From: an uncultured Candidatus Saccharibacteria bacterium
GTDB lineage: Bacteria; Patescibacteriota; Doudnabacteria; UBA920
NCBI GenBank assembly: GCA_964483665.1
Contig: CAZACP010000008.1
Location: 1 to 54,967 of the forward strand
Direction: 5' to 3'
Length of the DNA stretch: 54,967 nt
Both the position numbers and the translations under genes were made by a program. The notes beneath the pieces are model-generated. The model did not search any database. It saw only the letters and a list, made by a program, of their open reading frames with translations, and was not told the origin of the DNA. This document shows, piece after piece, positions 34,317-38,045 of this stretch. Numbering within the stretch: position 1 is the stretch's first letter; every line of letters begins with the position of its first letter.

Positions 34317-34349
34317 AATTTTATTTAATTTGCTAATTTTATTTAATTT
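34317..34349. repeat. Upstream inverted arms of the four-helix-bundle element
   Basis: aattttatttaattt twice (34317-31, 34335-49), reverse complement of the downstream arm. Confidence 0.75.
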
Positions 34350-35011
34350 TTAAATGACACAAGCACGGTCATTTCCCCTTTAATAGCCGCGCGGTCTTTA
34401 AGTTGGTGTATTACGTCGTCCGGAGTGCCTCGAATGAATTCTTCATGCATTTTGGTAAGCTCGCGCGCTATTACAACTTGGGAATTTGGAAAGGCGTTGG
34501 AAATATAGGAAAGAGTTTTAAGTATTCGTTCAGGACTTTCGTAAAAAATGGCAGTAGCTTCTGCGTCCGCGGCAGACTGCAAAGCCGAAACCGCCTTTGC
34601 CGCGGTTTTTTGCAAAAAACCTAAAAACATAAATTTGTCCGTAGGAAGACCGGAGGCGGACAGCGCCACAATGGCCGCACTTGCTCCGGGGATGGGAACT
34701 ACGGCTACGTTTTGCGCTACGCATTCACGAACTAGCCTAAAGCCTGGGTCACTAATTCCGGGAGTTCCTGCGTCGGTTATTAAACAACCGTCTTGTTTTT
34801 GTAAGCGCCGGGTTAATTCTTTTACCACCTGCTGTTCGTTAAATTCCGCAAACTGTACGACCTCTTTTGGCCAGGCGTCTATATGCTGAAGCAGTCTGTT
34901 GCTATAACCTGGGTTTTCGGCAATTACAAAATTGCATGACTTAAGGCTTTTTATAGCTCTTAAAGTAATGTCTTCTAAGTTTCCTATTGGAGTTGCGACA
35001 ACGTACAACAT
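34343..35011 (-). CDS. rsmI: 16S rRNA C1402 2'-O-methyltransferase RsmI
   Basis: LYVVATPIGNLEDIT, TDAGTPGISDPG, YESPER, ARELTKMHEE. Confidence 0.96.
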   Translation of the reverse strand: MLYVVATPIGNLEDITLRAIKSLKSCNFVIAENPGYSNRLLQHIDAWPKEVVQFAEFNEQQVVKELTRRLQKQDGCLITDAGTPGISDPGFRLVRECVAQNVAVVPIPGASAAIVALSASGLPTDKFMFLGFLQKTAAKAVSALQSAADAEATAIFYESPERILKTLSYISNAFPNSQVVIARELTKMHEEFIRGTPDDVIHQLKDRAAIKGEMTVLVSFKN

Positions 35012-35096: not shown

Positions 35097-35369
35097 CTAT
35101 TCATCTGTAGATTCTAAACCAAACATTTCTTCTATGAGCTGATATTTATTATGCAGCATTTCCCGGTATTCTCCTAATTCCCATTTAGCGTCGCCACTTG
35201 CCTGCTCATATTCTTCTTGGGTGTCTTTAAGTTCTTTGTCTATGTCCTCCAAAATTTCGTAAGCCTGGTCTTCGGTTTGCGGAGCCTGGTCCATCCACTC
35301 GTCAAAATCCATAGTTAAAAGTTTCTGATATTTTTCTTCGTATATTTCTTTTAATTTTGCCAAATCCAT
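35097..35369 (-). CDS. Acidic helical hypothetical protein
   Basis: 90-aa ORF, host-like codon usage, collinear with rsmI. Confidence 0.75.
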   Translation of the reverse strand: MDLAKLKEIYEEKYQKLLTMDFDEWMDQAPQTEDQAYEILEDIDKELKDTQEEYEQASGDAKWELGEYREMLHNKYQLIEEMFGLESTDE

Positions 35370-35386
35370 AAGCTCGTTTTAAGCAC

Positions 35387-35467
35387 CACAGAAAACTACA
35401 AAATTTAAGCAACTTTTGTAATTCAGGTTCTGCAGTTTTCTGTAGATTAATTATTAGTTTCTGTAAT
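35387..35467 (-). repeat. CAGAAAAC arm hairpin upstream of the 90-aa gene
   Basis: cacagaaaactacaaaat versus gttctgcagttttctgta; mismatches become G-U pairs on the minus strand. Confidence 0.6.
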
Positions 35468-35493
35468 TTATTTTACAATAATTTTGATATTTT

Positions 35494-35715
35494 AAAAACC
35501 CCTAATTCCACCAACTCCTTCAGGGAGTATTTTGGTAGCAGGGGTTTTTTGGATGAAAAGCCAAAAAGAAGAGTCTTTTAGCCTATGGATTAACCCGTAG
35601 GCTAACCGCCCAATAAATTGAGGCGATAATGCCGCTAAAGCGGGTTACAATTTTTTTTATTTAATTGTGTTTTATTTTTGTTTCGTTCTCCAAATGGAGA
35701 AGAATTAGCTTTTCT
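35494..35715 (-). ncRNA. Candidate structured RNA with its own promoter and terminator
   Basis: TTGCAA(35750-45)-17-TATAAT(35727-22); 10-bp closing stem 35705-14/35555-64; several internal hairpins; terminator 35494-35549; no SD-led ORF. Confidence 0.5.
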
Positions 35716-35759
35716 ATATACATTATAGCAGATCCAAAGAATTTTTGCAAGAGTAAAAA

Positions 35760-36542
35760 TTATTTATTTGAATTTCTATCAAGTCTTTTTGCTTCCGCCC
35801 ACGCAAGGTTATAAATTGTTTTCATAGCGGCACTTATTTCTTTGCTTTCTATAATTATGCCAAGTTTTTCTTTCCAAGAAGCTATCATTACTTTGTTATC
35901 ATAAATATTTATTTCGGGTGAAAAGTAAACTTTGTCAGCCGGTACGAGCGCGGATTCCCTAGCTTCCTCCGCGTCTTTGCCCGCTCTTTCTACCCCAGCT
36001 TCGTTGGAAGGAACTATGGCTTTTATATGAATGCCTTTATTGGTTCTTCTTTTGTAATATTTAGGAAAATAATCAGGCAAGGCTTTGTGCATTTCGTTTA
36101 CGTTAGCATAAGCTAAAATGGTTTCGTGCGATGCTAGTGTGTCCTCATAAACTTGCTCAACACCCTTCATGCCCTCATAGAACATAACTTTCGGCCTATC
36201 TGTAATATTGTGTAGAGATTTAAGCTGTGGCACCAAATTTTGTGCTTGTAAAAGCTCTTGTTGTTTTGTTTCTATTTCATCTTGAATTTTTTTTAATATT
36301 TTGTCCGGGCTTTCAGCGACGTATTCCTGAAGCGGTTCTTTGCCTGAAATACTAACCAAGCCTTTTGAAATTAAAGACTCTAAGATGTCATAAACCGTAG
36401 TTCTGTTTATACCCGACTTTCTGGCAATTGGCGAAACAGTTCTTTTGCCTAATTCCAATAAAGCCAAATAGACCAAGGCTTCTTTTTCAGAAAAACCAAT
36501 CGAAATTAGACTTTTATATAGAGGAGAGTTAATGTCTAGCAT
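35760..36542 (-). CDS. TrmB-family transcriptional regulator (paralog 4)
   Basis: Start MLDINS at 36542, 6 nt after TATACT; GFSEKEALVY...INRTTVY; PKVMFYEG; EINIYDNKV. Confidence 0.88.
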   Translation of the reverse strand: MLDINSPLYKSLISIGFSEKEALVYLALLELGKRTVSPIARKSGINRTTVYDILESLISKGLVSISGKEPLQEYVAESPDKILKKIQDEIETKQQELLQAQNLVPQLKSLHNITDRPKVMFYEGMKGVEQVYEDTLASHETILAYANVNEMHKALPDYFPKYYKRRTNKGIHIKAIVPSNEAGVERAGKDAEEARESALVPADKVYFSPEINIYDNKVMIASWKEKLGIIIESKEISAAMKTIYNLAWAEAKRLDRNSNK

Positions 36543-36653
36543 ATATAAAGTATATGCTATTTCTTGAATTGTGTCAATAGCTTTCCACAAAAAATATAAA
36601 ATATAGAAATTTAGCCTAAATAAAACCTTTTTACACAATGAAAATGACGCTTA

Positions 36654-37268: not shown

Positions 37269-38045
37269 TTATTTTTTACCGTCCTGTCTTTTCGCCTCAA
37301 GCCACGCCAGTTCAAATATCTTTTTCATCGCCTCGGCAATTTCGGCACTTTCTATGGTGATACCAAGTTCTTCGCGCCAAGAGGCTATCATAATTTTGTT
37401 GTTGTAAATATTAATTTCTGGAGTAAAGGAATATTTGTCGGCAGGGACCAGCGCGGTTTGCCTTATTTGAATTTTGTCGTCTTTTCTAAGTTCCCTTGCG
37501 GCTGGGGTGTCCGGAAAAATTGCGCGAATAGGAATTTTCTTTTTTGCACGTCTAAAGTAATAGTCCGGAAAATATTCAGGCAAAGCCACGTTGTTGTCTT
37601 CAACATGGGCAAAAGCCCGAATAGGCTCCTTGGAAGTTAAGGTGTCTTCGTATACTTCTTTTATGCCTTCCATTCCTTCATAAAATCTAACCTTTGGCCT
37701 GTCTTTTACATTATGAATACTTTTAAGTTGCGGGATTATGTTTTTTGCTTGTTCTATAAACGCTTGGTTTTTTTCTATGTAGTGGTTAAACATAGCAATT
37801 ATTTTGTCTGGGTTTTCCGCCGCGTATTCTTGTTTTGGCTCTTTGCCGGAAATATTTACTACCCCCCTGGTAAGTAACGAATTTAAAATATGGTAACAAG
37901 TAGTTCTGTTTATAGCTGCTCTTTGTGCTATTTGTGATACAGTACCCTTGCCAAGTTCGAGTAAAGACAGATAAATGTCTGCTTCTTTGCTCGAGAAACC
38001 TAAAGTGATAAGCGAATTTTGAAGTATAAAATGTTGTTCTTGCAT
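37269..38045 (-). CDS. TrmB-family transcriptional regulator (paralog 5)
   Basis: GFSSKEADIY...INRTTCY; close paralog of 35760-36542. Confidence 0.88.
   Translation of the reverse strand: MQEQHFILQNSLITLGFSSKEADIYLSLLELGKGTVSQIAQRAAINRTTCYHILNSLLTRGVVNISGKEPKQEYAAENPDKIIAMFNHYIEKNQAFIEQAKNIIPQLKSIHNVKDRPKVRFYEGMEGIKEVYEDTLTSKEPIRAFAHVEDNNVALPEYFPDYYFRRAKKKIPIRAIFPDTPAARELRKDDKIQIRQTALVPADKYSFTPEINIYNNKIMIASWREELGITIESAEIAEAMKKIFELAWLEAKRQDGKK

Follow-up and report, generated by a model that had tools for sequence, protein, structure and literature searches.

The raiA and OLE RNAs are the precedent for ornate RNAs that are orphans: they come from stand-alone genes with their own promoters and terminators, they have multi-stem folds that covary, and they are limited to certain lineages. 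Other small RNAs act as decoys. For example, CsrB and RsmZ mimic the ribosome-binding sites that CsrA binds, and 6S RNA mimics an open promoter. Within mRNAs, 5' stabilisers and S1-dependent leaders (such as the STAB-SD of cry3A or the rpsA operator) combine a 5'-terminal hairpin with an A-rich single strand near the 5' end of the mRNA. To our knowledge, almost nothing is known about the regulatory RNAs of the CPR bacteria (Patescibacteria). These bacteria have tiny genomes, do not grow alone, and need surface structures to attach to their hosts.

Here we describe an RNA of about 160-220 nt in the Candidatus Doudnabacteria, from a new family that is absent from the catalogues. Like raiA and OLE, it is a lineage-limited orphan with a covarying multi-stem fold, and it appears to have a stand-alone gene with its own promoter and terminator. 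It differs from them in that it has no Rfam match to either at E < 10, is smaller than OLE, is found in Candidatus Doudnabacteria only, and has a long, conserved, single-stranded A-rich tract in common with mRNAs. The decoy principle that we infer for it is like that of CsrB/RsmZ and 6S RNA. But CsrB and RsmZ carry 8-20 copies of their element, while this RNA carries one, without GGA motifs or any link to CsrA; and unlike 6S RNA, it has no rod-with-bubble shape and no match to the 6S model. Its module has the same arrangement of hairpin and A-rich single strand as the 5' stabilisers and S1 leaders, but here the module sits within a closed five-helix fold that is followed by a terminator and not by a gene. 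Finally, the RNA resembles a transcription-attenuating riboswitch in having a structured domain of ~160 nt, an immediate intrinsic terminator, and constant downstream genes. (We consider the differences from attenuators below.)

The RNA lies on the minus strand of the window (the whole stretch of DNA that was analysed, 54,967 nt), which belongs to a genome of 1.1 Mb in 30 contigs (G000) that is 100% complete by markers. In the direction of transcription, the locus contains:

35745-35750, minus strand: -35 hexamer, TTGCAA
35722-35730, minus strand: extended -10 element, TGcTATAAT, with the TG at -14/-15
35554-35715, minus strand: core of the RNA, nt 1-162 (covariance-model match of 138 bits, E = 3e-27)
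35494-35550, minus strand: intrinsic terminator, a long GC-rich hairpin (AAAAAACCCCU...AGGGGUUUUU) and a U-run, within the minimum-energy fold

The initial annotation, which was made from the sequence alone, described a promoter with TTGCAA-17-TATAAT, and this is present as described at 35750-35722. With the additional TG, the predicted promoter is near-consensus and of the extended -10 type. At the -35 position, relatives have TAGACA, TTGCAA or TTGACC with identical spacing, and in 40 of 41 homologous loci the pattern TGnTAnnnT occurs 5-9 nt 5' of the first base of the RNA. Judging from the geometry of the promoter, the RNA should start with the A of AGAAAAG at 35715, which is 7 nt past the -10 element. 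The strong terminator that had been noted is also there. All 41 homologous loci have a hairpin and a U-run 3' of the core and its closing helix (P1), and the terminator begins 0-6 nt past P1.

The 222-nt stretch from the RNA's start through its terminator has a folding energy of -77.6 kcal/mol, as compared to -45.0 ± 4.5 kcal/mol for dinucleotide shuffles (z = -7.27), and none of the 200 shuffles was as good. In the overall plan, P1 pairs the ends of the core and encloses P2-P5, for a total of five helices and a closed multi-branch junction. The parts of the core, from 5' to 3', are:

35705-35714 (nt 2-11), minus strand: 5' strand of P1, GAAAAGCUAA, which pairs with 35555-35564 (96% of cells paired)
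35682-35704, minus strand: P2 hairpin, UUCUUCUCC-AUUU-GGAGAAcGAA, with a purine run as its 3' arm (93% paired)
35658-35684, minus strand: A-rich module, GAAACAAAAAUAAAACACAAUUAAAUA, single-stranded in most homologues and the best conserved primary sequence of the RNA
35632-35643, minus strand: P3 hairpin, CCGC-UUUA-GCGG
35605-35627, minus strand: P4 hairpin, AUCGCCU / GGGCGGU, with a U-rich conserved 9-nt loop (92.7% paired)
35580-35603, minus strand: P5 hairpin, AGCCUAcGG / CCaUAGGCU (96.6% paired; two-sided changes in 8 of 9 pairs)
35563-35573, minus strand: conserved pyrimidine tract, CUCUUCUUUUU (J5/1), just 5' of the 3' strand of P1
35555-35564 (nt 152-161), minus strand: 3' strand of P1, UUGGCUUUUC, which pairs with 35705-35714

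From a plain MAFFT alignment of 16 homologues, RNAalifold recovered P1, P4, and P5, with two-sided changes in 13 of 22 pairs. We also aligned 40 distinct homologues to a covariance model (R1) that was built from 12 sequences, includes stems P1, P2, P4, and P5, and gives one match per genome. In these four helices, 94.9% of cells are paired, as compared to 41-56% in slid registers, and compensatory changes are found at 19 of 30 pairs; no shuffle attains the observed values, and although an alignment that is fitted to the model leans towards structure, the model-free result with 16 sequences agrees. Within P1, the six inner pairs hardly vary and the two outer ones covary, and genus g16 keeps the pairing as AGGAAAG/CUUUCCU. 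All seven pairs of P4 have two-sided changes, and the UUU of its loop is invariant. The loop and upper stem of P2 vary in length among homologues, and family f2 lacks P5. P3 is present as a hairpin of 4-9 bp with unrelated sequence in 37 of the 40 distinct homologues; because its sequence is free, it aligns poorly. About 17 of the 40 sequences (mainly from genera g3 and g20) have an extra hairpin, AAAACC...GGUUUU, that places CAAUUAAAUA in its loop.

Most of this fold had been proposed in the initial annotation. The stem between the 5' and 3' ends (P1, GAAAAGCUAA/UUGGCUUUUC) is backed by covariation, and UUCUCC/GGAGAA (P2), CCGC-UUUA-GCGG (P3), CGCC.../...GGCG (P4), and UAGCCUA/UAGGCUA (P5) are all present. 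The comparison with homologues that had been suggested as a check shows that the fold is conserved among relatives and that pairs in P1, P2, P4, and P5 covary. One helix did not survive this comparison: UAACC/GGUUA, which was thought to form a three-way junction, is paired in 45.5% of cells, as compared to 39-51% for slid controls. It is also incompatible with the outer pairs of P4, which are conserved.

We found no sign that the RNA encodes a protein. The annotation had noted the lack of an ORF with a Shine-Dalgarno sequence, and the longest ORF within the window's RNA has 10 codons' worth of protein (10 aa). A gene for a small protein can be rejected, as the start, frame, and length of the ORFs vary among homologues and none of them is conserved. 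Another explanation is that the RNA is a functionless remnant, a leader of an mRNA that lost its gene, and indeed its promoter type, 5' hairpin, and A-rich module are common to real mRNA leaders (see below). But the compensation at 19 of 30 pairs and the retention of the RNA in ~20 genera from two families imply selection on the fold, and we find this explanation very hard to credit. The proposal of a novel structured non-coding RNA is supported, at the level of sequence, by conservation, covariation, and a promoter and terminator of its own. We are confident that this is a real, selected, non-coding RNA gene.

To place the RNA among known families, we used the 4,227 families of Rfam 15, and it matches none of them. 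At gathering scores, the only matches in the window were tRNAs. Within 35350-35850, the best match at E < 10 was to P26, with 19 bits as compared to a cut-off of 36, and there was none at E < 0.1. These scans and those of the genome bear out the annotators' view that the RNA is not 6S RNA, tmRNA, SRP RNA, RNase P, or a known riboswitch. The tmRNA and the RNase P RNA are both found elsewhere in the genome. The 6S model (RF00013) has no match in the genome or the region even at E < 10, and the fold has no rod or central bubble. The SRP RNA models (RF00169 and RF01854) have no match even at E ≤ 10, and Ffh and FtsY were not found either. More specifically, the families for the SRP GTPases (PF02978 and PF00448) are absent from G000; when E. 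coli Ffh was compared to G000 by tblastn, the best E value was 2.3; and there is no DT[AS]GR motif in the six frames. Nor was Ffh found in 61 relatives, or in any of 151 Patescibacteria at E ≤ 1e-10. Within the sample that we searched, the SRP pathway (the M domain of Ffh, the SRP54-type GTPase, and SRP RNA) appears to be absent across the phylum, and its loss has been published for the Parcubacteria (PMC4508563). A Y RNA (YrlA-like) was also rejected, as the Ro/Rsr (TROVE) family PF05731 is absent and there is no Rfam match. In the literature, we found no paper that links the Doudnabacteria or the Patescibacteria with such an RNA.

We searched for the RNA in other genomes with BLAST and with covariance models. 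BLAST with a 267-nt query matched 38 of 60 relatives, and the matches, which are centred on the A-rich module, mostly cover the -10 box, the 5' stem, the first hairpin, and the A-rich tract. The whole plan is common to all 19 homologues that we extracted. By a second covariance model (R2), built from 37 sequences with divergent forms included, ~52 of the 146 genomes from the order (Candidatus Doudnabacteria) have the RNA with a score of at least 44 bits, almost always in a single copy. (Matches below 44 bits are mostly something other than the RNA.) These genomes represent ~20 genera from family f1 and two from f2. About two thirds of the order lacks the RNA, which is thus lineage-restricted and dispensable. 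Among 143 Patescibacteria from outside the order, there was no convincing match; the one borderline match (G203, E = 5e-4) has neither the promoter nor the A-rich module, and we treat it as due to chance.

The genes downstream of the RNA are nearly constant. In the window, these are:

35450-35478, minus strand: promoter-like site, TTGTAA-17-AATAAT, which overlaps TTGTAAAAT and lies 3' of the terminator
35097-35369, minus strand: p90, 90 aa, very acidic (pI 4.1, net charge about -19), with no Pfam family matched
34343-35011, minus strand: rsmI (16S rRNA C1402 2'-O-methyltransferase family; Pfam TP_methylase), followed by yebC

In nearly all of the 41 loci, which are from two families, the RNA is followed on the same strand by rsmI-yebC, usually with p90 in front: most loci have p90 between the RNA and rsmI, and most of the order keeps it immediately upstream of rsmI. 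The p90 protein is unlikely to be the RNA's partner, as it is very acidic, is missing at several RNA loci, and is present in genus g21 without the RNA. In that genus (L123, in G023:C1), a promoter-driven tRNA gene lies ~300 nt upstream of p90, in the RNA's place, and its anticodon loop is CUUAUAC (UAU, tRNA-Ile-like), like that of the window's tRNA-Ile(UAU). The leader of p90 in the window includes a hairpin, CUACAGAAAACU...AGUUUUCUGUGG (35387-35446, minus strand), between the promoter-like site and the start of p90. In a near strain, which is known from metatranscriptome contigs, 81 other bases replace 35373-35490, so this is a variable spacer. On the other side of the RNA, the neighbouring gene varies, and about a quarter of the loci have a TrmB-type regulator. 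The window has two paralogous genes of this type (35760-36638 and 37269-38045, minus strand), which are 60% identical.

The initial annotation had suggested either a trans-acting RNA or an attenuator for the downstream genes; the first fits better and the second is unlikely. As a cis-acting leader of p90-rsmI-yebC, the RNA would sense a ligand or a protein with its fold and would set the read-through of the terminator. This would account for the near-constant synteny on the same strand in two families and for the placement of the terminator within 0-6 nt of P1. A relative from genus g17 might also fit: L116 (G089:C43:228-396) has P1-like ends, an identical A-rich module, and a P4-like hairpin with a UAUUUUUU loop, but instead of having a terminator, this related fold continues straight into another A-rich module and the beginning of a gene for a membrane protein. 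L116 may be a cis-acting form of the RNA family. Furthermore, in four wastewater metatranscriptome runs, all from one study, the region is present (from the near strain) on assembled contigs that span the RNA, p90, and rsmI. These contigs could represent read-through transcripts or DNA, and because they are assembled and are 3-5 kb long, they are silent on whether there is a discrete small RNA, on its ends, and on its level.

Other observations weigh against attenuation. The minimum-energy fold has both P1 and the terminator, and when we inspected the sequence by eye, we saw no antiterminator: only weak U/A pairing could compete with the terminator, and its CCCC/GGGG core would be untouched. 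The downstream genes also have an apparent -10 element of their own. The promoter-like site at 35450-35478 probably serves p90-rsmI-yebC, and the relatives that we examined have TAAAAT-type -10 hexamers 3' of the terminator, although just 12 of the 41 loci have the strict extended -10 pattern there. In four relatives (L066, L060, L062, and L070), the ATG of rsmI or p90 comes 7-9 nt after the TAAAAT hexamer, which suggests that those mRNAs are leaderless. Next, lineages that lack the RNA keep the genes: g21 has p90-rsmI (with the tRNA gene upstream of p90), and g17, f3, and f6 have rsmI, with gyrA or other genes upstream. Lastly, the single-stranded sequence of the RNA is conserved more than is usual for the linkers of aptamers. 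The promoter and terminator of the RNA, the apparent -10 element of the downstream genes, the lack of any visible competitor for the terminator's GC core, and the RNA-less lineages that keep p90-rsmI together favour a separate gene over an attenuator, short of proof. We consider a cis-acting attenuator to be improbable, and we think it likely that the RNA is a separate transcription unit that acts in trans.

What might the RNA do in trans? The best clue is that its most conserved part is found at the 5' ends of mRNAs. In the RNA, the single-stranded A-rich tract between P2 and P3 is 25-35 nt long. In mRNA leaders, the module is a 5' hairpin and GAAAC(A/C)AAAAYAAAA..CAAUUAAAUA, which is nearly identical to the 3' end of the RNA's P2 and its A-rich tract. 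The exact pattern of the module occurs in 19 of 61 genomes, once in each, while the reversed control gave no matches. These 19 matches comprise 14 copies of the RNA, four mRNA leaders (L126, L127, L131, and L132), and a divergent RNA from genus g23. In genomes that lack the RNA, the weak matches to the model are 5' leaders of protein-coding genes, with a similar promoter and a short 5' hairpin. Across the order, the module and its 5' hairpin head at least 15 protein-coding genes (the loci include G000:C6:40101 and its homologues L104, L131, and L132, as well as L109, L110, L111, L126, L127, L146, L148, and L149).

G000 itself has one clear copy in a leader, at C6:40043-40135 (locus L002; region to 40200), before the gene for a single-pass membrane protein of 249 aa. 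Homologues of this protein in three other genera have the identical type of leader, so that the ~250-aa family carries it in four genera in total. In leader L146, from genus g3, the arms of the P2 stem (GUUCUUC/GAAGAAAC) equal those of the RNA. The distance from the start of the module to the start codon is 21-115 nt, and as some mRNAs have 50-115 nt here, the module is not just a site where ribosomes bind. Nearly all of the proteins behind these leaders have an N-terminal signal peptide or a transmembrane segment, but most of the leaders were picked by the covariance model, which might favour the U-rich codons of transmembrane segments, so the link to the envelope is weakly tested. The five leaders that were found by motif or by BLAST alone (L126, L127, L131, L132, and the one in G000:C6) all precede proteins with signal peptides or transmembrane segments. 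When ten of the leader-linked proteins were compared to Pfam, only a CAP domain and DUF5648 were named. Within G000, a profile of the 28-nt motif contains too little information for a search: nhmmer found only the RNA (E = 0.028) and a single weak site. Scans of G000 with loose regular expressions gave mostly chance matches to A-rich sequence, and lysine-rich N-termini mimic the motif.

The RNA carries the motif of its possible target mRNAs, as a decoy would, with one copy per RNA. In our best explanation, transcription from the extended -10 promoter at 35715 to the terminator at 35550-35494 would give a separate small RNA, in which P1 would close off P2-P5 and the fold would display the A-rich tract between P2 and P3. 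P2 and the tract would mimic, in trans, the leader of mRNAs for secreted and membrane proteins, and the RNA would compete for the factor that recognizes those leaders. Given an A/U-rich 5'-proximal element, the most evident candidate for this factor is ribosomal protein S1 with the 30S subunit, but a dedicated RNA-binding protein is equally possible. This competition would tune the expression of mRNAs for envelope proteins, and a contact between the pyrimidine tract and the purine arm of P2 could fix or switch the presentation of the A-rich tract. We rate this explanation as a whole (an independent gene for a stable, compact small RNA of a new family that acts in trans as a leader mimic) at somewhat below an even chance, and mimicry as the mechanism is a shade more doubtful. 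Known protein sponges have many copies of their module, and this RNA has a single one. Hfq would be a candidate reader of an (AAN)n tract, and tblastn did not find it, though for so small a protein this test is weak. The module might instead be a common cassette for strong expression or for 5' stability, with no competition involved. Also, the constant synteny with rsmI-yebC would fit a role in cis.

If the RNA does act in trans, its function might have nothing to do with the leader module. It might be part of a ribonucleoprotein, might regulate RNA polymerase in the manner of 6S RNA, or might be a ribozyme or bind a ligand, and the A-rich tract would serve its own tertiary contacts or bind a protein. 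A compact multi-helix fold with paired ends is typical of stable RNP RNAs; the invariant sequence of P1 and the conserved U-rich loop of P4 suggest sequence-specific recognition; and no 6S RNA was detected in this genome, so the role of 6S is unfilled. But the RNA has no 6S-like rod or central bubble, and no match to 6S in Rfam at E < 10. There is no linked gene for a partner either, given that p90 is acidic and is missing from several loci. This explanation, which we see as rather unlikely, would also leave unexplained why a 27-nt module heads mRNAs.

The RNA could also bind the leaders instead of mimicking them. As an antisense regulator, its U-rich P4 loop (YUAUUUUUN), perhaps along with the pyrimidine tract, would pair with AAAAAUA in the mRNA module, and its own A-rich tract would compete with this pairing from within. 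The loop is conserved, and in many homologues it is complementary to the core of the module over 7 nt; for example, the loop UUAUUUUU in G027 matches AAAAAUAA in leader L132. But in AT-rich sequence, it is trivial for runs of A to be complementary to runs of U; where the module has a C, the loop has no G to match it; and in f2 the loop differs while the module is unchanged. We judge antisense pairing to be quite improbable.

A more speculative idea starts from the lack of a signal recognition particle in the Patescibacteria. Because of that lack, the 5' hairpin and A-rich module might serve the Doudnabacteria as an "address label" by which a dedicated factor recognizes mRNAs for envelope proteins, for example to translate them near the membrane or with some other privilege. 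The RNA, which would present this label on a rigid scaffold, might be a regulator or an RNA subunit of this SRP-independent system. This is a long shot. More broadly, the link to a leader of mRNAs for surface proteins gives a concrete, testable idea for how the envelope might be controlled in these symbiotic cells; on the ordinary reading alone, this is another orphan RNA from a single uncultured lineage. Either way, the new family is well supported, with a defined promoter, a terminator, and five covarying or conserved helices, so that probing its structure and pulling down its partners are feasible.

Three short sequences in the RNA are each conserved: UUCUUC (the 5' arm of P2), GAAGAA (the 3' arm of P2), and CUUCUU (before the 3' strand of P1). 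In pyrimidine-purine-pyrimidine triple helices, such as ENE/MALAT1, telomerase, and SAM-II pseudoknots, three such strands come together. In this RNA, the third strand would run alongside the purine arm, parallel to it, on its way into the stacked P1, and this fits the major-groove geometry of U.A-U and C+.G-C triples. Here the triple helix is a conjecture: an ordinary antiparallel helix would fit just as well, and no covariation is specific to a register. An antiparallel helix between the purine arm of P2 and J5/1 would have 76% of cells paired, as compared to 74-88% in slid registers, and it does not covary; the repeats are mirror-symmetric, so no register is preferred and no covariation arises. 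A pseudoknot between the P4 loop and the A-rich tract was rejected, as both are of low complexity and could always pair, and f2 changes the loop and not the tract.

The pyrimidine tract probably does contact the purine arm of P2, either as base triples or as an alternative helix, and this makes the RNA a candidate for structural work on a natural triple helix or switch. Between the tract and the purine arm, there are 6.1 consecutive matches in the parallel orientation and 6.7 in the antiparallel orientation, as compared to 3.4 and 4.7 in shuffles. The g23 variant lacks both the purine arm and the pyrimidine tract, and other variants keep the match: GAGAA-GAA occurs with CUCUUCUU in the window, and AGAAGAAA occurs with UCUUCUUU in G029.
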